Positions 1 through 53,628 of a stretch of DNA of 64,000 bases are shown in pieces (position 1 is the first letter of the stretch; every line of letters starts with the position of its first letter). The translations under genes and the position numbers were made by a program. Origin of the DNA: Elainellaceae cyanobacterium (lineage in GTDB: Bacteria; Cyanobacteriota; Cyanobacteriia; CAKZMO01); the NCBI GenBank assembly GCA_050331115.1, contig JBHJHD010000011.1, forward strand, positions 9,034-73,033, read 5' to 3'. Below the pieces are notes generated by a model, which did no database searches, had not been told where the DNA came from, and saw only the letters and a list, made by a program, of their open reading frames with translations.

Positions 1-1274
1 GGGCCTTTATTTACCCCTTTTTCCTGGCGTTTTTGTACTACGTCTTGCAGCGGGCTATGCTGCCTGCCCTACTCGCCATCGTGCTGCAGGGGCTCTTTTA
101 CCCCCAGTGTTTATTTCTCTCCTCTGGGGTCCTGGTGCTGCGGCTGCTGGAGTGGCGGCAGGGGCTTCGGCTGTCGCGGCAGCGGCCAGACTATGTGCTG
201 TGCGTTGCGGGGCTTGGGATGGCTTTTATCATGCTGCTGCCCTATGCCCTCAAGATTTCAGACTATGGTCCGGTGCTAACGGTGGCGGAAGCGCGATCGC
301 TGCCGACCCTGGAGGGGGACGGGCGAAAAAACTTTTTCTTTGACAACCCGCTTAAGTTTTGGCTGTGCGGCGAGCGCTCGGGCATCTTGCCCTACAGCTG
401 GTGCAAGTATGAGCGCCCCCCGGAGCTGTGGGCGAGCCTGCTGCTACCGCTGCTGCTGTGGCGATCGCGGCGAGCCAGTCAGAATACCCTAGGGCATAAG
501 GTAACGCCCGATGTGGCGCTGCTGCTGCAGGTAATTGCGGCATCGGTAGGCATGTTCTTTCTGGCCCATGCCCTGCTGTTTCGGCTGCATCTGCCGAGTC
601 GCTACATCAAGCACAGCGTGCCCATGGTGGTCACCATTGCGGCGGGCGTTTCCCTGGTGCTGCTGCTAGAGGCTGGGCTGCAGTGGGCCAAGCGGCGGCG
701 ATCGCGGCAAAATCTTGCGGCTCTGGGCGTTGTGGGGCTGGTAGGCCTCTACAGCTTTGGCTATCCGCTGCTCATGGATGAGTACCCCAACCCCGACTAT
801 GTCGCTGCTCAAAGCACATCCATGTATGAGTTTCTAGCCCGTCAGCCGAAGGACGCGCTAGTGGCCTCCCTTTCGGACCAGGCTAACAATATTCCGGCCT
901 TGGCGAAGCGATCGGTGCTGTCGAGTTCTGAAACCGCTAACCCGTACCATTTGGGGTATTATCGGCAGATTCAGGCGCGGACAGAAGACCTGATGGCGGC
1001 TCAGTACAGCGTTACCCCGTCGGTGGTTAGGGATTTTGTTGAGACCTACGGCGTCGATCTGTGGCTCGTCGACGCCAACGCTTTCGAAGCGGAGTATATT
1101 TCCCAGAACCCCTGGCTAAGGCAAATTCAGCCGACCGCAGATGAGGCGAGGCAGCGGCTGAGCCAGGGACAAAGGCCGCTGCTCGAAACGCTAATCCGCC
1201 CCTGCCGAGCGTTTCGAGGGCAGGGGCGGATTATTCTCGACGCTCAGTGCATCGTCGAGCGTCTCTCAGAGTAG
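1..1274 (+). CDS. Multi-pass membrane protein, 5'-partial (possibly GT-C-fold glycosyltransferase-like)
   Basis: The frame stays open back to the window edge (AFIYPFFLAFLYY...). Several hydrophobic segments (e.g. LAHALLFRLHLPSRY) are followed by a soluble C-terminal region. The family assignment is tentative. Confidence 0.6.
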   Translation, partial: AFIYPFFLAFLYYVLQRAMLPALLAIVLQGLFYPQCLFLSSGVLVLRLLEWRQGLRLSRQRPDYVLCVAGLGMAFIMLLPYALKISDYGPVLTVAEARSLPTLEGDGRKNFFFDNPLKFWLCGERSGILPYSWCKYERPPELWASLLLPLLLWRSRRASQNTLGHKVTPDVALLLQVIAASVGMFFLAHALLFRLHLPSRYIKHSVPMVVTIAAGVSLVLLLEAGLQWAKRRRSRQNLAALGVVGLVGLYSFGYPLLMDEYPNPDYVAAQSTSMYEFLARQPKDALVASLSDQANNIPALAKRSVLSSSETANPYHLGYYRQIQARTEDLMAAQYSVTPSVVRDFVETYGVDLWLVDANAFEAEYISQNPWLRQIQPTADEARQRLSQGQRPLLETLIRPCRAFRGQGRIILDAQCIVERLSE

Positions 1275-42457: not shown

Positions 42458-42890
42458 AAGGGGGACGGTGAGCTGGACGACGCCAGAACTAGTACATCAG
42501 TATAGTACGTCCAATAGACTCCTTAAGTTTGACACACTCTCTATAGGCTACAAGGGATGCAATAGCGGGTGAGGCGATAGTACCAGGTTTACGGTGGCGA
42601 TCGCAGAGCTATCTAAGGAATGGGAATTTTAGCCAGACTTCAATCTTGAAGATGAGCGGCTTGGCCACCGTGAGCCTGCTGAGGAACCTGTCGTCGCTCT
42701 GTGCGTCCAATTACTAGAACACTTCGGTAAACTTTGTAACTTGACTGTCGCTGACGCGGCTCACGCCAAAGGCTACGCAGTAGCCAGTCAGATGCCGAGC
42801 AGAGTCCAAGTCTATCTCTACTGAGATAGAGCTTGTAGATTGGGATGCACGCCGCCTAAAAATTTTTTAACAGATTTAAATAAAGAGGCT

Positions 42891-45260
42891 ATGGCTAGTA
42901 TCACCGTCACCACAGCAGCTAATTCAGGAGCAGGTTCGCTCAGAGAGGCGATCGCCAGCGCCAGCAGCGGCGACACAATCGTATTTTCGTCCCAGCTTGC
43001 AAATAAAACGATTCGCCTCGACGAGCAGCTTGTCGTCAGTAAAAGCCTCACCTTTGATGGGGCGGCCGCGCCCAACCTGACCCTCAGCGGTCAGAACAAG
43101 ACGCGGATTATGCACGTAGACTACAACTTTTCAGATGTTGTAATTCGAAACCTCGCCTTTGCCAACGGCCGCGCCGCCGACAACGACCCCAACAATAAAC
43201 CGCAGCAGGGCGGAGCGATTAAGCTTGGCGATCCCAATACGCTGGTGGTCGAGAACTCTCGCTTCATCAACAACGCCGCCGAGCGCGGCGGTGCGATCAA
43301 CGTCGGCTACGGGGCCAGCGCCACGATTGTCAATAGCGTCTTTGACGGCAATGATGGCACCCTCGCCGACAACGGCTTCAGCGCCGGGGCGATTTCCACT
43401 GCCGGGGGCGGCAAGGGTGCGAAGGTCGTCAACCGTAGGGGCGATCGCGAAGTGGGTGGTGAGGCGTTCCTCGATATTCGCAATTCCACCTTCACCAATA
43501 ACAAAGGCTCCTACGGCGCAGTCTATACCCTGCTCAGCGGCCTGCGGGTAGAAGACACGGTTTTTCGCAATAACGAAGGTACGCGGGGCGCTGGCGCCAT
43601 TTTCACCGATGGCGCCAACGGCACCGCCCAAGACGATAATCTGGGCGGAACGACAATTGTTCGCAACGTGGTAGCCGAGAACAACAAAAGTGGCGAACAC
43701 GGCGGGGCCTTCTATTTCTATGGGTATTCCGGCGATAAATACATTGTCGAGAACGCTCAAATAGCCGGCAACAGCGCTTTTCGCGGCGGCGGCATCGGGG
43801 CCCAGTCGGGCCGGGATAAAGACAACGGCGTTGAGCTGATTATTCGCAACTCGGTGATTGCCGACAATACGGCGTCATCCCAGGGCGGCGGCCTATGGAC
43901 CGACGTGAAGGACGGCGTCACAATCGAGGACTCGACCTTCTCGGGCAACCAGGTCACGACCCCCACCGGCGGCGGCGACATCGGTGGGGCGATCGTCCTC
44001 AACACCCGCGAAGAAGCCAAGTCGACCATCACCAACACCACGTTTGTCGACAACTACGCCGGTCGCCAGTCGGGCAATATCTGGATCGGCGGTCGGGAGA
44101 AGGCCAAGAATCTCACCATCACCGACTCTCGCTTTGCAAACAATCGCGCCGGCAGCAGAGATACGGAAAATACCGTCAACTTTGAGGTCAAAGAAGGGGG
44201 CGGCAACCTGGTCCAAAGTAAGACGGGCGTAGACACCGGACTGCCCAAGGCCAAGCTGGTGGAGACCCTGAAGCTCGACCCCATACCAACGGCGGGCGGT
44301 TCCAACAGCGGCGCGGGTGACCCGCCTGCTCCCACCACTGGCACCCCCACTACCGGCGCTTCCACAGGGGAAGACGCTGCGCCGCCTAAGTCAATGCCTG
44401 AGCCCACAGACGATAAGCCCCAAGACCCCATCGGCGAGTCTTCCATGGCGGGCGGCGATCGCCCCGTGAAGACGGGCAGCGGTGACGATACTGTAGTTAT
44501 TGGCGCAGAGGACAGCACTGTAAACGCCAAATCTGGCGACGACTTCGTCTACTCCGAGGGAAACATCTCCGGCAGCGTGCACACCGTTGACCTAGGTGCT
44601 GGTGAGGATAGCTTCTGGGCTACCAGCGGAGACAACGCCATTGCCGGCAAAGATGACAACACCATCGGCATTGGCAAAGGCGACGATACCGTTAGCACCT
44701 ACGGTGGCGATGACTTTGTCTACTCCGTTGGGGGCGGCGGCGGCGATAACACGCTGAGCCTGGGCGGCGGCGACAACACTGTCTGGGTTGAGGGCGGCAG
44801 CTATAAAATTACTGCCGGGGCAGGAGACGACGCTATTGGTCTGGGTGTCGGCGTCGATAGCGTCAACGCAGGCAGCGGCGACAACGTCATCTATACGATC
44901 GACGCCGCCTCCGCGGGGAATAAAGACATCATGACCGGTGCGGGCAACGACTACATTCAAACGGGAGCCGGGGATGACCGGCTCGACGGTGGCCTAGGTG
45001 ATATCAATACCCTTGCCGGCGGCGAGGGTGCAGACACCTTTGTGCTGCGGCAGGGCACTTATACCTATGTCGAGGATTTTGAAGCAGGGCGCGATGCGAT
45101 CGCGCTATCGGGCACCGGCCTTAGCGAGATAAGCATCAGTCAGGGTACCGGAGAGGCTGCTCAAGATGCCTTCATCAGCGTAGATGGGGCGATGGTGATG
45201 CAGGTGGCCGATACTCAGGCGACGGCGCTCGATGGCGGCAGGAGCTTTATTGGGGCATAG
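42891..45260 (+). CDS. Secreted beta-helix (GGAI-repeat) protein with RTX-type Ca-binding repeats
   Basis: TVTTAANSGAGSLREAI start, repeated GGA(I/F)...F.NN motifs, a Pro/Thr linker and G.G.D repeats ending GGEGADTFVL. ATG at 42891 has a GAGG RBS. Confidence 0.85.
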   Translation: MASITVTTAANSGAGSLREAIASASSGDTIVFSSQLANKTIRLDEQLVVSKSLTFDGAAAPNLTLSGQNKTRIMHVDYNFSDVVIRNLAFANGRAADNDPNNKPQQGGAIKLGDPNTLVVENSRFINNAAERGGAINVGYGASATIVNSVFDGNDGTLADNGFSAGAISTAGGGKGAKVVNRRGDREVGGEAFLDIRNSTFTNNKGSYGAVYTLLSGLRVEDTVFRNNEGTRGAGAIFTDGANGTAQDDNLGGTTIVRNVVAENNKSGEHGGAFYFYGYSGDKYIVENAQIAGNSAFRGGGIGAQSGRDKDNGVELIIRNSVIADNTASSQGGGLWTDVKDGVTIEDSTFSGNQVTTPTGGGDIGGAIVLNTREEAKSTITNTTFVDNYAGRQSGNIWIGGREKAKNLTITDSRFANNRAGSRDTENTVNFEVKEGGGNLVQSKTGVDTGLPKAKLVETLKLDPIPTAGGSNSGAGDPPAPTTGTPTTGASTGEDAAPPKSMPEPTDDKPQDPIGESSMAGGDRPVKTGSGDDTVVIGAEDSTVNAKSGDDFVYSEGNISGSVHTVDLGAGEDSFWATSGDNAIAGKDDNTIGIGKGDDTVSTYGGDDFVYSVGGGGGDNTLSLGGGDNTVWVEGGSYKITAGAGDDAIGLGVGVDSVNAGSGDNVIYTIDAASAGNKDIMTGAGNDYIQTGAGDDRLDGGLGDINTLAGGEGADTFVLRQGTYTYVEDFEAGRDAIALSGTGLSEISISQGTGEAAQDAFISVDGAMVMQVADTQATALDGGRSFIGA

Positions 45261-47641: not shown

Positions 47642-47893
47642 AAGCGCCCAAACCAGCGGAATAAAAGGCCACTATGGCCAACTAAGTTGAACTAAGTCCC
47701 CCAAAAGTGAAGCTTTAGGGGGAATATTAAAGCTTAAGCGCGATATTTTCAGAAACCCCGTCCGATTTCAGCGATTCTTCTCAAAAACTCAAGATTCACG
47801 GTCAAAATGAGTAAATGTACAGCCGCTGAGCTGATATCAGAACTTGCGCGTAGCGCACCTTATCCCTAGGCATAGCGAATCAGATGCAACGCA

Positions 47894-48511
47894 TCAATCG
47901 TCCAGCCAAGACTCTAGGCCCAGTAGGTCTACCTTCGTCTCCATATCCGTGCCGCGCTCAGTTTCCTTCACCTGCCGCAGCATATCCCGTAGCGCCCTCG
48001 TCTCTACCGCGTCCGTCGGGCCATCATACAGACCCCGTCGCTTCAGCTCCTGGGTGAGCACCTGCCGCAGGCTGTCAAACGCCTGCTGCATCTCCGGACC
48101 ATAGTGACCGTCGATCTCGCCGGTGTAAAAGCCTTCCTGCTTCAGCCGCGCCTGCGCCTGCTCTAAAGACTGCTTGGGCACCCGGGCCGCCTGGCGATCG
48201 CGACTGTCCTGCATCACCTGGTCTACCCAGCTATTGTCCAGCGCCCGACGCAGGCGGTCCTGCTGTTCACGGATCTTGGACAAATCGATCAGGTCTAGCT
48301 CGTGGCCCAAAATATGGTCCGTTTCATCGATGATGAAGCTGAGCAGGCGATCGCTTTCAGCCTGCTGAAGGATCTCTGACAGTCGCGTCTCTTGGGCCTG
48401 AGTCAGACAGCTCTGGAGTGAAAGCCAGTAATACTCCTGTGCGATTTCCGCGTAGCCCTGAGATTTGTGGAGCAGGTCTTCTGAAATAGTGTCAAGATTT
48501 TCCATGTCCAT
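47894..48511 (-). CDS. Peptidoglycan-binding-domain protein with a helical N-terminal domain (candidate sigma partner)
   Basis: AQARLKQEGFYTGEIDGHYGPEMQQA is PG_binding_1-like and is followed by a degenerate second copy. AGGTGA RBS. Confidence 0.75.
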   Translation of the reverse strand: MDMENLDTISEDLLHKSQGYAEIAQEYYWLSLQSCLTQAQETRLSEILQQAESDRLLSFIIDETDHILGHELDLIDLSKIREQQDRLRRALDNSWVDQVMQDSRDRQAARVPKQSLEQAQARLKQEGFYTGEIDGHYGPEMQQAFDSLRQVLTQELKRRGLYDGPTDAVETRALRDMLRQVKETERGTDMETKVDLLGLESWLDD

Positions 48512-48602
48512 AGGTTCACCTGAAGTGCGTCATAAAAAGTTGAGGGGACGGCGATTGATAAGTAGCATTGGCGCGCCCTTCGCATGAGCGCGCTCTACAT
48601 AT

Positions 48603-48626
48603 GTGTCGAGAGAAGACGAATGTGAC
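48603..48626 (-). promoter_or_regulatory. Shared motif copy 1 (GTCACA-N12-CGACAC)
   Basis: Lies upstream of the PG-binding gene, on its coding strand. Confidence 0.55.
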
Positions 48627-48834
48627 GGCCGTAGCGAATACACTTTATAGAAACTTGTTGTTTAGTAAAGCTTCTGTAAATCGGCCCATATTGCAGCAAC
48701 AACCTGAAGCCTTCGACAGAAAGTGACCCACATCGCTGAAAACCTCACTATCCAAAGGGTATTATGCTTAGACGTTACAGGCTGAGCCGCTTAAGTAAAT
48801 TTTCTCAACCCATAAAATTCTCAACCGGACAGGT

Positions 48835-48858
48835 GTCACACTTAGATACTTTCGTCAC
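48835..48858 (+). promoter_or_regulatory. Shared motif copy 2 (GTCACA-N12-CGTCAC)
   Basis: Ends 25 nt before the sigma ATG at 48884. Confidence 0.55.
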
Positions 48859-48883
48859 AATTACTCAGATATCTCTACTTCCC

Positions 48884-49507
48884 ATGAGCATGGCCAACGA
48901 CGATTGCCCCCCCAATCAGCTCCAGGCGGTTATCCGTGAGATCCTAAGCACCAACAGTGCTCATCCATACTCGTTTATTTCGATGGTGCAGCGGTTCATC
49001 AACCAGTACAACTTGACCCACACCACCGAGCCCCACGAGATTATTCACATTGCCTACGAGCGCACGCGCAAGGCCGAGAAAAAGCAAACTATTATCAACT
49101 ACAAAGCTTGGCTGCGGAGCACCTGCCTCAATATTATTCGCGAAAAATCTCGTGAGCGGCGAAAGGAAACGCTGATGGACCCTCAATCCCATGAGTTTGA
49201 GGCCCAAACTGCTGTTGAGGTCAATAGCGAACCGGTATCACAGGTGACCCAAGAGCAGCGCATCGACCTGCTGTTTTTGGCGCTAGAGCGGCTATTTGAA
49301 ATTAGACCTGACATCGGCCAGCTGCTGAAGTTTCGGCTTTTGGATGGCTATGACTGGGTCCAGATTCAGAAGATATTGGCGGAGGAGGGAGAAGACTGCA
49401 AGCTGGCCACGTTGCGTAAGCGAGCGGAGCGCGGGAAGCGGCTACTGCGGCGAATTTACCACCAGCTTGAGAAAGATTTACTGCAGGAGCAGGGCGTCCA
49501 AGGCTGA
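48884..49507 (+). CDS. ECF-like sigma-70 family sigma factor
   Basis: Region-2-like HEIIHIAYER..NYKAWLRSTCLNIIRE and region-4-like LLKFRLLDGYDWVQI..ATLRKRAERG. The start is placed at 48884 rather than 48764. Confidence 0.8.
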   Translation: MSMANDDCPPNQLQAVIREILSTNSAHPYSFISMVQRFINQYNLTHTTEPHEIIHIAYERTRKAEKKQTIINYKAWLRSTCLNIIREKSRERRKETLMDPQSHEFEAQTAVEVNSEPVSQVTQEQRIDLLFLALERLFEIRPDIGQLLKFRLLDGYDWVQIQKILAEEGEDCKLATLRKRAERGKRLLRRIYHQLEKDLLQEQGVQG

Positions 49508-49556
49508 TCGGTTGTGCACTGTAGCGTAAGGCCTACAGCCTGGGTTTAAAGCTTTA

Positions 49557-49593
49557 ACGGCTAGGGCAGAGGATTGAATTCCTGCCCTAGCCG
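49557..49593. terminator. Hairpin between the convergent sigma and NfeD-like genes
   Basis: ACGGCTAGGGCAG...CTGCCCTAGCCGT, a 13-bp stem. Confidence 0.65.
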
Positions 49594-49613
49594 TCGGCTT
49601 ATTTTAGTTCGCT

Positions 49614-49865
49614 TTAGTTCATGTCATTTGCGCTGTTGGTGTCGATCAGCAGCGTCAGATTTTCTCTGCCGACTACGTAGACAATATCATCTGGGCACAG
49701 GCTCATGCCCTCTCGAACGCCGCGAGCAGACCAGGTTGTGGCCTGATATTTGACCCTCCACTTTTCTCCTTGAGAAACGACTTTGTCGATAATGGCTTCA
49801 GCGAGCTGAGTTTTGAACCCAGGCATGAATGAGCTGGAGACAGATGTGACTTCGGAGAGAAACAT
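49614..49865 (-). CDS. Stand-alone NfeD-like C-terminal (OB-fold) protein
   Basis: AIIDKVV..WRVKYQATTWSAR..VYVVGRENLTLLI. AGGAG RBS and no TM segment. Confidence 0.85.
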   Translation of the reverse strand: MFLSEVTSVSSSFMPGFKTQLAEAIIDKVVSQGEKWRVKYQATTWSARGVREGMSLCPDDIVYVVGRENLTLLIDTNSANDMN

Positions 49866-49947
49866 GGCGTACTCCTATAGTTCAGGGTGAGTTGAGAGTA
49901 GCTAAGGGCAGAAACCTCAGAACTTCTTATCTGACTCTCAAGTTAAA

Positions 49948-49972
49948 GTGATGGGCTTCCCCCCTTTGTGAC
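49948..49972 (-). promoter_or_regulatory. Shared motif copy 3 (GTCACA-N13-CATCAC)
   Basis: Lies upstream of the NfeD-like gene, on its coding strand. Confidence 0.5.
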
Positions 49973-50035
49973 CTACACAGAGCAATATAGACCGTCGCAG
50001 CATTCTGTAATTGCTATAAGAGCACGAGAAGGACT

Positions 50036-50719
50036 TCAGCTCGGCGAATCGAATCGATAGCCTTTGCCATAGACCGTGTGAATTAAGGCGGGCTCTCCCA
50101 AGTGCTCCAGCTTACGCCGCAGCAGGCGTACCTGAGCTGCCAAAACGTTGCTGGTCGACGGCTCTTCCTGCCAAACCTGTTGATAAATCGCCTCGTGGGA
50201 AAGCAGCTGGTTGGGGTGGCGCATAAAATAGCTCAGCAGCAGACTCTCTTTTTCCGATAGCTCTACCGTGCGATCGCCCCGGGAAGCCACTTGATTAGCG
50301 GGGTCCAGCGCCAGGTCGCCCAGCGTAAGACGCTCGACAGATTCTGATGGTGATAGGGTTGGCGGTCGCCGCAGCAGCGCCCGCACCCGAGCCAGCAGTT
50401 CCTTGAGCTCAAAAGGTTTTACTAAGTAGTCGTCCGCACCGGCGTCTAGCCCATCGACCCGATCGTCTACCGTATCTTTGGCCGTTAAGAACAGCACCGG
50501 CGTCACCCGGCCCTGCGATCGCAGCCGTCGGCACAGATCCAAGCCGCTCTCCCCCGGCAGCATCCAGTCTAAAATCAGCAGGTCGTAGGTCTGCGACTCC
50601 GCCAGCTGTCCCCCCGCGCGGCCGTCATAGGCCGTCGTCACGGTATAGCCCTCTCGCCGCAGTACTTGACTGAGCGCGTCCGCCAGCTCGGCTTCATCGT
50701 CTACCAGGAGAATGTGCAT
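50036..50719 (-). CDS. OmpR-family response regulator
   Basis: LLVDDE, ILDWMLPG, GADDYLVKPF and IHTVYGKGYRF. Confidence 0.95.
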   Translation of the reverse strand: MHILLVDDEAELADALSQVLRREGYTVTTAYDGRAGGQLAESQTYDLLILDWMLPGESGLDLCRRLRSQGRVTPVLFLTAKDTVDDRVDGLDAGADDYLVKPFELKELLARVRALLRRPPTLSPSESVERLTLGDLALDPANQVASRGDRTVELSEKESLLLSYFMRHPNQLLSHEAIYQQVWQEEPSTSNVLAAQVRLLRRKLEHLGEPALIHTVYGKGYRFDSPS

Positions 50720-50739: not shown

Positions 50740-53628
50740 TTAGCGGCCAAGGGGCGGCGCCGACGTTTCGTTGGGATCGTCTTCTATCAGATCTAGCTCA
50801 AGACTCGGGCTAGGCTCAGCGGGTGAGGGGGTTGGTTCAACTTGAGTTGACTCTTCCTCAATGGGAAAAGCCTCAATCGGAGCGGGTTCGGAAGGAATAG
50901 GGTCAGGGGAAGCAGGTTCGGCGGGCTCTGGGGTTACAGGCACGCCCTCAGTCGTGCCGCCCGTAGGAAAGTCAACGGTGGCCGGGTCAACCAGCTCCGG
51001 CTCGTAGTCAATGGGTTCCGCGTCAAAGCGGCGCGGCGTTCCCGTCCAGGCAAAGTCGCTGATGCGCAGGTTGAGAGAGCCGATTTCTCGGTCGGGGTTA
51101 AACCGGAAAAGGACGCCAAAGGTGCGGCGACTATACTCAACAAAATAGCTCGTATCAAAGTCCTCGTCTTCCGACAGGCTGATCGAGGTCTGAAATCCGA
51201 CCCGAAAGGGACCAATAAGCTGAGCCGTTAAGCCCCCTGACACCACTTCTCGATCCTGCACGCGATCAAAGGTGAAGGGAGATTCACTCCCCTCCGTGCT
51301 GCGGCGATAGGTGAGGTTGAAGCCGAGGTAGTCGAAGGCGGGGCGAGAGAAATGGCCAAACTGACCAAAAAGCGATAGCTCTCCCGTCAGGATAGGCTGG
51401 GTGTCACCACTGCTATAAAATCCAGCAACGCCGCGCACTCTGGGGTTTAAGGCAAGAAAAGGAACGACGGGCGTCGGCGTATATCGCAGTCCTTGATCGG
51501 GAGTTGCAGGAAGCGGGGTGCCGGCCCAAAGCGTGACGGGACGCCGCACCTCCGCCGCCACCTGGTAGCGGGTCAGGGTAGTGTTGTTGTCCTCTCGCTC
51601 GAGAATCGGGCCGAGAAGATCGTCGCGCCGCTCAAAGCGGATGTCGTCGGTAATGCGCTGCACGGAGCCTTGGTACGTGAGCTCAGCGCCCGAGTTCCCT
51701 AGCGGAATCGCCGGGGAGGTGGCAATCACGCCAAAGGACTGATCCACTGTTTGAAAACCTAGGGTACCGTTGAACAGGCGATCGCGGTAGCTGTATTCTC
51801 CAGTGAAGGTATACCCACTGGGCGTGCTGCGGCGCAGGCGGACTAGGCCCCGGAGGTCTTCGTCGGCGAAGTTACTGTCAAAGTCGAGGCTGGTGAGAAT
51901 AGTGCTAGCCTCTAAAGACGTCAGCGAGTCAAAGGCGGCGTCTAGCTCCGCGGTCAGGCCATAGGAGTTGGGGTTGAGCACCCCCGTGTCGTCTTCGCCA
52001 ATTTCAATATCGTCTTCATCGCGGCCCGTAAACGCCCGCTGAATAAAGAACTGAGGCGTGAAGCTAAACCGAACCACCGGCGTATCGATTACCTCGAATT
52101 CGCGCTCTGCAAACAGACCGTCTCGGTCTTCTTCGTCAAAGCCAAACTGAACCGGCAGCGGGTCCTGCTGACGCTGGTCGAAGACGTAGCGCGATCGCAA
52201 TAGCGGTATGGTGAGCCCCCGATCAATGACCAGACGGGGATTCCTCAGGCGCAGCTCGCTGCGGGTGGCGGACAGGCGCTGAAAGGTTGCCTGATTAGTG
52301 CGAATTTCTAGCTCTGGGGGAGAAAAGGGGTCGTTGGTAAGCCTCACGTTGGCCGCCACCCAGCCGCCGGGGCGAAAGTCGATGCGCTCGGCCTCAAACC
52401 GGAGCTGCCGCACGCTGCCTGCGGCTGAGCCTTGATCGACGTTGCCGCCGGTGGAAGAAATTCCCGCCCCGATGGTCACGCCGCCCACGGCAGTCGCGGT
52501 CTGCACCTCGGGCTGCTGGCGGCTGAGACGGGCGCTGAGGACATCGTCGTTAGAAACGCCAACATCAGCCCCTGCCCTTTGGTTGGCTGCCGATGGGTCA
52601 TCCACGGGGCGATCGCCGGAGAGGTCCGAGGCAATCTGGGGGATAAAGACCTCGCCCCGAGCGTCGAGGATAGCCCCCTCCTCCCGCACAAAATTATATT
52701 CAATGCGATCGCCCCGCAGCACCTGCTCACCCCGGGTAAATACGACGTTCCCCGTAGCGATGGCGATCTGGTTGGGGAGGTTGACGCGGACTTCGTCAGC
52801 CAGCAGCACCGAACCCCTCACCGTCAGGGCGACATTCCCCTCGGCGATAAAGGACTGCTGCTGCCGGTCATAGACTTGGCGATCGGAAATCACCTCTAGG
52901 GCGTCAATGCCATCGGCCACGCCGCTGGCTGCCCCCTCTGCAGGGTCGTCTAGCTCCAGCTCCTCTAGCGGGATAGCGTTGGTTTCGGGGGTAGCGCTGG
53001 GACGCTGCGCTGGGGCGGCAGGGTCTAGGGTTGGCAGCGGGGCCTGAAAGTCGCTGGGAATGGGGTCCTGGGCCTCGGGCTGTTGGGCGACCCAATCCAC
53101 CAGCTCGCTCAGCAGATCCCGACTCTCATGCAGCAGCACCGCCGCTTCTTCGTAGACGGCTTCGTCAGCGGCGAGCCTCGACTGGGCATCGGCTTCTAGC
53201 GCGATCGCCCGCTCTTCGTCAAGGCCGTGGTCTTGATAGAGGTCACCAAGCTGCGACCCCGGCAAGGAGCCGTTTCCCGGTAAGCCGACCTCCACCGGCG
53301 GACCCAGACCATCTATGTCTGTAGCGCCTGCGTCAGCGGTATCTGCTTCCGCGCTGCCTGTTTCTGCGCTAGCAAGCTCGACGCCAGGAAGCCTAGGGCT
53401 ACGAGATTCAGGGCTGCGAGATTTGCTGCTGTCCACGGCAACAGCTGGGTCAGAAGCGATCAGGGTTGAGGCTACTACCGACAGCGCCCTGGGGGCCATA
53501 GGCTCTGGCAACAGCACCTGTCGCTCAGCCTCGGCCAATAGACTAGCTTCAGGCCAAGACAGCGTATCGGCGTGCGGCACTGTTGCCACATGAACAAGGG
53601 GTGGCGGTGGCGGCACTGGATAGGGCAT
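50740..53628 (-). CDS. LptD/OstA-like outer-membrane assembly protein (DUF3769)
   Basis: OstA-like N-domain (AEGNV..L.AD..ATGNV..RGEQVLRGDRIEYNF), TNDPFSPPELE and YSYRDRLFNGTLGFQTV. Confidence 0.85.
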   Translation of the reverse strand: MPYPVPPPPPLVHVATVPHADTLSWPEASLLAEAERQVLLPEPMAPRALSVVASTLIASDPAVAVDSSKSRSPESRSPRLPGVELASAETGSAEADTADAGATDIDGLGPPVEVGLPGNGSLPGSQLGDLYQDHGLDEERAIALEADAQSRLAADEAVYEEAAVLLHESRDLLSELVDWVAQQPEAQDPIPSDFQAPLPTLDPAAPAQRPSATPETNAIPLEELELDDPAEGAASGVADGIDALEVISDRQVYDRQQQSFIAEGNVALTVRGSVLLADEVRVNLPNQIAIATGNVVFTRGEQVLRGDRIEYNFVREEGAILDARGEVFIPQIASDLSGDRPVDDPSAANQRAGADVGVSNDDVLSARLSRQQPEVQTATAVGGVTIGAGISSTGGNVDQGSAAGSVRQLRFEAERIDFRPGGWVAANVRLTNDPFSPPELEIRTNQATFQRLSATRSELRLRNPRLVIDRGLTIPLLRSRYVFDQRQQDPLPVQFGFDEEDRDGLFAEREFEVIDTPVVRFSFTPQFFIQRAFTGRDEDDIEIGEDDTGVLNPNSYGLTAELDAAFDSLTSLEASTILTSLDFDSNFADEDLRGLVRLRRSTPSGYTFTGEYSYRDRLFNGTLGFQTVDQSFGVIATSPAIPLGNSGAELTYQGSVQRITDDIRFERRDDLLGPILEREDNNTTLTRYQVAAEVRRPVTLWAGTPLPATPDQGLRYTPTPVVPFLALNPRVRGVAGFYSSGDTQPILTGELSLFGQFGHFSRPAFDYLGFNLTYRRSTEGSESPFTFDRVQDREVVSGGLTAQLIGPFRVGFQTSISLSEDEDFDTSYFVEYSRRTFGVLFRFNPDREIGSLNLRISDFAWTGTPRRFDAEPIDYEPELVDPATVDFPTGGTTEGVPVTPEPAEPASPDPIPSEPAPIEAFPIEEESTQVEPTPSPAEPSPSLELDLIEDDPNETSAPPLGR

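Follow-up and report, generated by a model that had tools for sequence, protein, structure and literature searches.

A candidate autoregulated sigma/anti-sigma mini-regulon around a divergent ECF-like sigma factor in an Elainellaceae cyanobacterium

The DNA considered here, a stretch of 64,000 nucleotides referred to as the window, comes from the genome of an Elainellaceae cyanobacterium (G000; 4,665,345 bases in 171 contigs, 58% G+C). It holds three neighbouring genes (Table 1), which encode a divergent sigma factor resembling those of the extracytoplasmic function (ECF) type, a partner protein of 205 residues with a peptidoglycan-binding region, and an NfeD-like protein of 83 residues. A sequence-only reading of this region had proposed that these genes constitute an autoregulated mini-regulon served by a single bipartite promoter motif, where the 205-residue protein may act as a soluble anti-sigma factor or cell-wall sensor and the NfeD-like protein may be an output. 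The locus was compared with the genomes of 61 relatives and with a wider sample of 401 genomes across the phylum, in which sigma homologues were searched for at E<=1e-12, with 7 candidates scored per genome.

Each of the three genes carries one copy of the motif in the intergenic region upstream, in the same orientation as the gene itself and at the positions given in the sequence-only reading. The distance from the CAC triplet of the motif to the start codon is 92 nucleotides for the partner gene, approximately 26–32 for the sigma gene, and 83 for the NfeD-like gene. The AT-rich hexamers located 3' of the copies (ATATGT, AATTAC, and TTTAAC), which had also been pointed out, are part of a conserved -10 region. 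The second hexamers as originally delimited (CGACAC, CGTCAC, and CATCAC) all end in the conserved CAC, and the 31 sites tabulated at the loci of a first set of sigma homologues refine the motif to GTCACA-N15-17-CAC. Among these sites, GTCACA is found in 31/31 by selection and is preceded by T in 15, and the triplet reads CAC in 25, CAT in 3, and CAG in 3. An A/T-rich stretch follows the triplet on its 3' side and, some 6–8 bases on, a purine-rich T(A/G)(G/A)A(G), with the -10 element of low-G+C filamentous cyanobacteria reading tCACTA(a/t)T. As the conserved element is CAC and the spacing is therefore counted as N15-17, the start-to-start distance between the -35 and -10 elements is 21–23 nucleotides, which corresponds to ordinary ECF promoter geometry. 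This geometry, together with the strict co-orientation of the sites with their downstream genes, fits a promoter. The earlier statement that the spacing differs from that of ECF41 promoters does not hold, since it arises from counting to CGTC rather than to the -10 core, CAC at N15-17. In the promoter of the sigma gene, GTCACA is doubled, with the copies 19 nucleotides apart (48835 and 48854), and the same doubling is observed at two other sigma loci (L023 and L027).

The motif travels with the sigma family. The first set, from which the motif pattern was defined, comprises 15 homologues from 14 loci in 11 genomes, sharing 21–83% identity with the sigma factor of the window; all 15 have the motif upstream on the coding strand, 13 directly upstream of the sigma gene and 2 in front of a co-directional upstream gene. 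An independent set of 13 further homologues from the phylum sample was scanned for GTCACA-N15-17-CA[CTG] on the coding strand within 350 nucleotides upstream, and the motif is present in 9 of them, compared with a mean of 0.10 loci and a maximum of 2 in 2000 shuffles of the same regions, and with 1/13 when the first 350 nucleotides of the coding regions are used as a control. All six independent homologues at E<=1e-36 carry it. These statistics overstate the significance, as related sequences are not independent of each other. Judged from these genomes, the motif is associated with the sigma family across cyanobacteria, as autoregulation predicts, and the mini-regulon put forward in the sequence-only reading thus gains comparative support. 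The bipartite site of autoregulation upstream of the sigma factor's own gene is present and conserved, and is presumably read by the same sigma factor.

All three promoters also appear as conserved footprints in the orthologous loci of congeners, in four genomes for the sigma and partner genes and in three for the NfeD-like gene, which is the conservation in homologous loci that the proposal called for. The motif boxes are conserved islands in the spacer between the sigma and partner genes, where mean column identity is 55% over the four genomes. The leader of the NfeD-like gene, with a mean column identity of 68% over three genomes, is near-invariant from the -35 element to approximately +25, with diverged flanks.

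At the level of the whole genome, the motif points to a very small regulon. GTCACA is rare (759 copies on both strands), and the pattern GTCACA-N12-13-CRWCAC occurs three times in the window, where 100 shuffles yield 0.04 matches on average; this statistic is biased, as the pattern was drawn from the same three sites. The genome scan for this pattern, which had been recommended in the sequence-only reading, returned 6 matches, three of them the local ones and the other three (on C3, C24, and C50) inside long open reading frames (ORFs), so that the three local sites form the sole intergenic cluster of the motif in the 4.67-Mb genome. Two candidates for a wider regulon were rejected. These are the only other exact intergenic matches in the genome, and their number is about that expected by chance: C113:9710-9738 (-), 27 nucleotides 5' of a gene for a metallo-beta-lactamase-fold hydrolase, is not retained as a complete motif in the orthologous regions of G001–G004, and C37:2261-2286 (+), 31 nucleotides 5' of a coiled-coil gene, is not retained as one in G001–G003 and has no match in G004. 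Both are probably chance matches and therefore the regulon in this genus would consist of the three local promoters. Allowing one mismatch in GTCACA yields 143 intergenic matches across the genome, without a pattern, and in the genomes of the 61 relatives GTCACA-N15-17-CACWWW occurs as often as its reversed-pattern control, giving no sign of a large regulon. Among the matches listed, the sigma loci of G000, G002, and G003, with three sites each, are the only clusters other than tandem repeats. Two overlapping matches in another relative (G060:C33:37158-37207) derive from a 21-nucleotide tandem repeat (GTCACAAACCAAGCGCCAATAG...) unrelated to sigma loci.

The sigma factor itself escapes the standard models. 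It matches 0 Pfam families at E<=0.1, scores 18.4 bits against NCBIfam TIGR02937 (cut-off 42.9), and reaches a sub-threshold E of 4.4e-6 with NCBIfam PRK12527 over residues 43–165, and its close relatives in Elainellaceae metagenome genomes bear the NCBI label 'hypothetical protein'. A profile made from the alignment of the 15 homologues taken from genome loci, when compared with PDB sequences, matches SigW (5wuq) with an E of 3.6e-7 over profile positions 50–194 and SigE with an E of 4e-4 over positions 48–195. SigH and SigD are also among the matches, none of which is an entry named ECF41. The profile thus shows homology to both the σ2 and the σ4 domains of known ECF sigma factors, and the earlier identification as an ECF-like sigma factor is upheld at the profile level, with the NCBIfam ECF models far below their cut-offs. 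Among the 15 members taken individually at E<=0.01, Pfam detects Sigma70_r4_2 in 6 and Sigma70_r2 in 1. According to the SigW alignment, the protein has a two-domain layout, with σ2 at about residues 30–95 and σ4 at about 130–195, a linker of approximately 35 residues, and neither region 1.1 nor region 3; it ends some 10 residues after σ4 and has no C-terminal extension. Seen at the level of profiles only, it is a real and very divergent member of the ECF-like (group IV, sigma70-family) clade.

The module extends beyond a single genome, its family numbering at least 312 clusters (50% identity). The family profile retrieves 312 such clusters at E<=1e-30, a number that rises to 738 at E<=1e-10, and at E<=1e-3 the profile merges into the general ECF sigma factors (12,032 clusters); the Atlas neighbours of the sigma factor are likewise clusters of ECF-type sigma factors. 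The distribution of the family is patchy, with members in 11/61 relatives (single protein as query, E<=1e-3) and in 12/401 genomes of the phylum sample, and the genome of the window has one copy. Domain-based surveys would largely miss this clade, and the available part of PMC11119718 provides an example of such a survey, based on Pfam, of cyanobacterial sigma factors.

Some family members are fused to other domains. The proteins P0045, P0138, P0133, P0145, P0099, and P0063 present fusions to TRADD-like_N, HicB, PIN_3 (twice), and long tetratricopeptide repeat (TPR) arrays, which are domains typical of toxin-antitoxin and conflict systems. At locus L020 (G005:C232, 3912-8542), two sigma paralogues lie in tandem, led by a partner of 321 residues with three PG_binding_1 repeats and followed, after the second paralogue, by a NACHT nucleoside triphosphatase (NTPase) of 728 residues; the locus has three copies of the motif, one of which is placed to drive divergent small ORFs.

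The 205-residue partner combines an N-terminal domain of about 100 residues, for which there is no matching Pfam family, with a peptidoglycan-binding region. The latter passes the Pfam cut-off for PG_binding_1 (PF01471; 29.8 bits, cut-off 23, E 7e-07) over residues 115–144, covering 30/57 profile positions, and also matches PF08823 (PG_binding_2-like) with an E of 2e-05; a weak Foldseek match relates it to the N-terminal domain of SleB (probability 0.60), and NCBI labels the orthologues of the protein 'peptidoglycan-binding protein'. The partner contains one cysteine and no hydrophobic 19-mer (maximum Kyte-Doolittle mean of 0.54), that is, no membrane segment. The alignment of 21 sequences of its N-terminal domain has the consensus EYxxLS...RLxxIL..AExDxLLSFxIDExDH, where Y27, L30, I47, and D65 are invariant. 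No usable match was obtained for this domain in the Atlas search, and the partner matches no anti-sigma family in Pfam or NCBIfam and holds no HxxxCxxC zinc motif.

Gene linkage connects this N-terminal domain to the sigma family. The 61 relatives hold 15 genes with the domain, and 13 of them adjoin a family sigma gene, the exceptions being G044:C321, which lies near a contig end, and G007:C236. Conversely, 14/15 sigma genes have a neighbour with the domain, with L025 as the exception; there, the sigma gene abuts a gene that resembles an integrase (by eye only). The C-termini that follow the domain vary. Some carry PG_binding_1 repeats, one to three in number, or DPBB_1; others have cadherin, LamG, and Reelin-type domains past a membrane segment, which in L026 has a Kyte-Doolittle value of 2.0; and one is a canonical ECF sigma factor. 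By analogy, a sigma-linked head that stays constant while the tail varies corresponds to the architecture of anti-sigma factors. The case with the canonical sigma factor, at L024 (G009:C126, 3387-4913, -), is a protein of 508 residues encoded downstream of a sigma homologue, in which two tandem N-terminal domains precede a sigma factor with weak Pfam matches to Sigma70_ECF, r2, and r4. Its structure suggests a candidate anti-sigma factor fused to a second sigma factor.

A model of the complex between the sigma factor and residues 1–105 of the partner yielded ipSAE values of 0.84/0.84/0.83, compared with 0.01 for the best of three controls. The mark used is reached by 58/80 solved complexes and by 2/110 mismatched pairs, a calibration which is only rough, as the model was made with alignments prepared for this analysis. 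At least 81% of the contacts are shared between the runs, the pLDDT of the partner is at least 81, and the contacts fall on residues 8–86 and 123–193 of the sigma factor, so that both σ2 and σ4 are touched. The model supports the predicted binding of the sigma factor and the partner. Modelled alone with AlphaFold2, the partner has a mean pLDDT of 78.7, with blocks at 83–98 within residues 11–70, and its fold has no Foldseek match in the PDB at E<=0.001. In the VIA wide search, the cytoplasmic anti-sigma domain of PupR was found with a Z of 6.2 (root-mean-square deviation of 2.8, 55 aligned residues), within the range of unrelated helical matches (Z 5–6.5, the best 6.5). Because it has no membrane segment, its N-terminal domain is linked to family sigma genes in 13/15 cases, and the complex model reaches an ipSAE of 0.84, the partner is best read as a soluble anti-sigma factor cognate to the neighbouring sigma factor, in agreement with what the sequence-only reading had suggested.

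The NfeD-like protein aligns with the C-terminal OB (oligonucleotide/oligosaccharide-binding) domain of Pfam NfeD (PF01957) with an E of 1.3e-5 and a score of 25.7 bits, below the cut-off of 29.1. Of its homologues, 5/8 scanned pass the cut-off, with 33–41 bits, and the homology to NfeD appears credible. In the 83-residue protein, the most hydrophobic window reaches 0.88, and neither a membrane segment nor a ClpP-like protease part is present; the scanned neighbours of its gene do not include an SPFH/stomatin gene. Homologues are common, being present in 36/61 relatives, often in several copies, and only the orthologues of G002 and G003 (84% and 73% identity) adjoin the sigma gene and carry the motif. 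The idea that this gene is an output of the system therefore stands for the closest genomes (G000, G002, and G003); as an output of the whole family it was rejected, as the motif is found at 0/9 more distant NfeD-like loci. The NfeD-like gene is thus proposed to be a member of the regulon in this genus only, the output being lineage-specific, because the extra motif-bearing genes of other lineages are different small ORFs. At L026 (G009:C196, 4282-4720, -), two tandem ORFs of 65 and 60 residues (MKLGEIL...), each with its own motif, lie downstream of the sigma-partner operon; by eye, they bear a resemblance to the domain at the N-terminus of type II secretion ATPases. The NfeD-like gene is absent from the orthologous locus of G004, and on a contig of 2263 bases (L004, G004:C925) a GTCACA-N17-CAC copy at 85-110 (+) lies 15 nucleotides past the stop codon of the sigma gene, on the strand opposite to it, so that its transcription would run antisense to that gene. 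This copy may be a promoter left over after a deletion or an element of antisense control.

Table 1. Coordinates in the window of the genes, domains, promoters, and hairpin of the candidate mini-regulon.
Feature	Coordinates	Strand	Evidence
Partner gene, 205 aa, N-terminal sigma-linked domain and C-terminal PG_binding_1 region	47894..48511	-	ORF; Pfam
Partner N-terminal domain, residues 1–100, helical	48212..48511	-	Alignments of 21 sequences; complex model
Partner PG_binding_1/PG_binding_2-like region, residues 104–148	48068..48202	-	Pfam PF01471, PF08823
Predicted partner promoter: GTCACA 48626-48621, N15, CAC 48605-48603, then ATATGTAGAG	48603..48626	-	
Predicted sigma promoter: GTCACA 48835-48840, N15, CAC 48856-48858, then AATTACTCAGATA	48835..48858	+	
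Divergent ECF-like sigma factor, 207 aa	48884..49507	+	Family profile
Intergenic hairpin of the convergent sigma/NfeD-like gene pair	49549..49600		Folding
NfeD-like OB-fold protein, 83 aa	49614..49865	-	Pfam NfeD, sub-threshold
Predicted NfeD-like gene promoter: GTCACA 49972-49967, N16, CAC 49950-49948, then TTTAACTTGAGAG	49948..49972	-	

Regarding the remaining features of the locus, the ORF of the sigma factor opens at 48764, and an ATG at 48884 or 48890 is conserved in relatives, with 48890 being the start kept in G002; translation most likely begins at one of these two codons rather than at 48764. The hairpin between the convergent genes has a folding energy of -43.6 kcal/mol (z -3.32, with 0/200 shuffles as stable) and a U-rich tail after it on the + strand. 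It is probably a terminator shared by the sigma and NfeD-like genes; a simple terminator scan made no call there, the loop being above the limit of the scan. The scanned neighbours of the sigma gene encode the PG_binding_1 protein, the NfeD-like protein, and an OmpR-type response regulator, the gene of which (50036-50719) is syntenic in G000, G002, and G003 and does not carry the motif. Directly 5' of this regulator, on the same strand, lies an ORF of 962 residues (50740-53628, -) with a Pro/Glu-rich N- and C-terminus, also syntenic in G002 and G003. On the other side, the product of an ORF of 806 residues (42840-45260, +) has a repetitive, Gly/Asp-rich C-terminal half with GxGDD-like runs, suggesting a secreted calcium-binding repeat protein. 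The sequencing runs that contain 47800-50100 are three DNA runs from one stromatolite-metagenome study, and no RNA run.

The sites and their conservation, the homology of the sigma factor, and the gene linkage of the sigma factor, the N-terminal domain, and the motif are shown by the analysis. On this basis, we consider it quite probable that the region is a self-contained autoregulated sigma/anti-sigma mini-regulon, where the reading of the motif by the sigma factor, the inhibition by the partner, the transcription starts, and the signal are what we infer. In such a system, σ4 of the sigma factor, bound to the core RNA polymerase, would read GTCACA at -35 and σ2 would read CAC and the AT-rich stretch at -10, with 15–17 nucleotides between both elements, and transcription would probably start at a purine approximately 8–11 nucleotides past CAC. 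The three promoters would drive the sigma gene itself (positive autoregulation), the divergent gene of the 205-residue partner, and the convergent gene of the 83-residue NfeD-like protein. The helical N-terminal domain of the partner, of approximately 100 residues, would insert between σ2 and σ4 and keep the sigma factor off the core polymerase, so that the partner, as a soluble cytoplasmic anti-sigma factor, would provide negative feedback. The PG_binding_1 domain is the likely input, and the best guess for its trigger is a cell-wall-derived ligand or a protein partner, the binding of which would free the sigma factor.

Several observations weigh against this interpretation. The motif is missing in 4/13 independent homologues, three of which are fused proteins (one with PIN, one of 479 residues, and one of 552 residues) and the fourth a distant one, and several genomes (G004, G005, G009, and G044) hold two paralogues with near-identical motifs, which leaves their specificity unexplained. 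The sigma factor scores below every curated family threshold in Pfam and NCBIfam. A peptidoglycan-binding domain is odd in a protein with no export signal, and the partner has no significant fold match to known anti-sigma domains, PupR being at noise level. The score of the complex may in part reflect the memory that the model has of solved sigma/anti-sigma complexes. Finally, the transcript starts are predictions, and that the motif is read by this sigma factor and not by another factor is deduced from sequence comparisons.

This last point opens the way to two alternatives concerning the motif. It might be the site of a separate transcription factor, such as the OmpR-type regulator encoded at 50036-50719, with a TCACA...TCACA half-repeat on one face of the helix, as the 19-nucleotide doubling of GTCACA in the sigma promoter, repeated in L023 and L027, and the conserved synteny of the OmpR-family gene in G000, G002, and G003 would allow. 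However, conservation in the second box concerns CAC and the AT-rich run, not a repeat of GTCACA, the spacing equals the -35/-10 geometry of ECF promoters, and all sites are co-oriented with the downstream gene, with divergent genes each having their own copy. Moreover, OmpR-type sites usually repeat every 10–11 bp, and no response regulator is evident among the ORFs tabulated for the distant motif-bearing loci (L018–L027 and L042–L054), the neighbours of which were Pfam-scanned in part. A transcription factor site is hence very improbable. It is also highly unlikely that the motif is a promoter for a different sigma factor of the cell, with the divergent sigma factor, the partner, and the NfeD-like gene being merely its co-regulated targets. 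The link between sigma factor and motif comes from sequence, and the -35 element GTCACA does resemble the TGTCACA of ECF41 promoters, as given in the accessible sections of PMC3426412, which in principle leaves room for another ECF factor to read it. Nevertheless, among the matches listed the motif clusters only at loci of family sigma factors, over the whole genomes of the 61 relatives it is as frequent as the reversed-pattern control, it accompanies the sigma factor in very different cyanobacterial lineages, and its -10 element CAC/CACTA differs from the CGTC of ECF41.

A further alternative accepts the sigma factor and its promoter and assigns another role to the partner, which would assist the sigma factor as a positive co-factor or as an adaptor, by tethering or activating it, or else be a product of the regulon that binds peptidoglycan fragments. 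Its N-terminal domain has no detectable similarity to known anti-sigma domains, and both the fusion of such domains to a canonical ECF sigma factor in L024 and the association of sigma factors with a NACHT NTPase in L020 go beyond a simple anti-sigma factor. We nonetheless regard a non-inhibitory partner as unlikely, since the predicted interface spans σ2 and σ4, and class I anti-sigma factors block core binding through a geometry involving these two domains. Furthermore, a constant N-terminal sigma-binding domain with a variable C-terminal sensor, at times past a membrane segment, is the pattern of anti-sigma factors, and co-expression from the sigma factor's own promoter is typical of them.

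Within the preferred interpretation, that of a sigma factor held by a soluble anti-sigma factor, a more specific proposal can be made, which we regard as speculative and rather doubtful. According to it, the partner would be a cytoplasmic sensor of peptidoglycan fragments, where muropeptides or wall precursors bind PG_binding_1 and free a sigma factor from a Pfam-invisible family that is wired into conflict systems. If this were the case, cytosolic muropeptides or wall precursors would appear upon wall damage or phage attack, and the system would parallel, at the level of bacterial transcription, the NOD-type sensing of peptidoglycan in the cytosol, with a new anti-sigma fold, its sigma family being also wired into the NACHT, TRADD-N, PIN, and HicB conflict systems of multicellular cyanobacteria.

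Since the sigma factors of the family are labelled 'hypothetical' and the partners 'peptidoglycan-binding protein', a whole cyanobacterial regulatory family is at present invisible to annotation. The comparative data provide for it a sigma factor, a candidate anti-sigma factor with a new sigma-binding domain, a sharp promoter consensus, and a small regulon of three promoters. What is new is an ECF-like sigma factor that Pfam does not see, with the family-specific promoter GTCACA-N15-17-CAC; what is known is the general scheme of ECF sigma and anti-sigma factors. As the consensus is unlike the standard ECF motifs, the pair may find use in cyanobacteria as an orthogonal expression switch. The wall-related sensor domains (PG_binding_1 and DPBB_1) and the fusions to conflict domains suggest that the family links wall status or infection to transcription, a link that was not described for this sigma family in the literature searched.

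In the papers searched on ECF sigma factors, anti-sigma factors, and cyanobacteria, no description of the promoter or the partner was found, and the main text of the ECF re-classification (PMC7826278) does not mention them, its supplementary group tables being a place where the family could be listed as a numbered group. Among known systems, NfeD/STOPP proteins share with the 83-residue protein the alignment to the C-terminal OB domain of PF01957, and they differ from it in that here the OB domain stands alone, with no membrane segment, ClpP-like protease, or adjacent stomatin/SPFH gene.

A second comparison concerns the conflict systems of multicellular bacteria, for which the consulted portion of Kaur, Iyer, Burroughs, and Aravind 2021 (PMC8195603) describes ECF sigma genes in neighbourhoods of the caspase/EACC2/TPR kind, as well as an ECF-like helix-turn-helix (HTH) joined to TRADD-N. 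Similar fusions, to TRADD-like_N, TPR, PIN_3, and HicB, occur in the sigma family considered here, of which one member lies beside a NACHT NTPase; these fusions therefore tie the family to the 'ECF-like HTH' of cyanobacterial conflict systems. Unlike them, the module of the window has no effector, NTPase, or protease component, and the same portion of that paper does not describe the promoter motif, the N-terminal partner domain, or a PG_binding_1 partner.

A third comparison is with ECF41. According to the sections available from Wecke et al. 2012 (PMC3426412), ECF41 promoters read TGTCACA-n16-CGTC, and these sigma factors are regulated by their own fused C-terminal domain. The -35 element of the module is near-identical (GTCACA, with a T before it in 15/31 sites), whereas its -10 element is CAC/CACTA at N15-17, the CGTC of the sigma promoter sitting at N12. 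In contrast to the ECF41 factors described there, the sigma factor of the window has no SnoaL-like extension and no COE neighbour, and has a dedicated partner. Judged from its sequence, it is not an ECF41 sigma factor.

A further point of reference is provided by ECF sigma factors with a co-encoded anti-sigma factor, such as the pairs SigW/RsiW from B. subtilis and RpoE/RseA from E. coli. Unlike these, the promoter of the module does not have the usual AAC and CGT cores, its sigma factor fails the curated models, and its partner is devoid of a membrane segment, of the HxxxCxxC motif, and of any known anti-sigma domain. What the module has in common with both pairs is the overall design, namely a two-domain sigma factor of approximately 200 residues, a bipartite promoter, an autoregulatory site, and an adjacent gene for its predicted partner.

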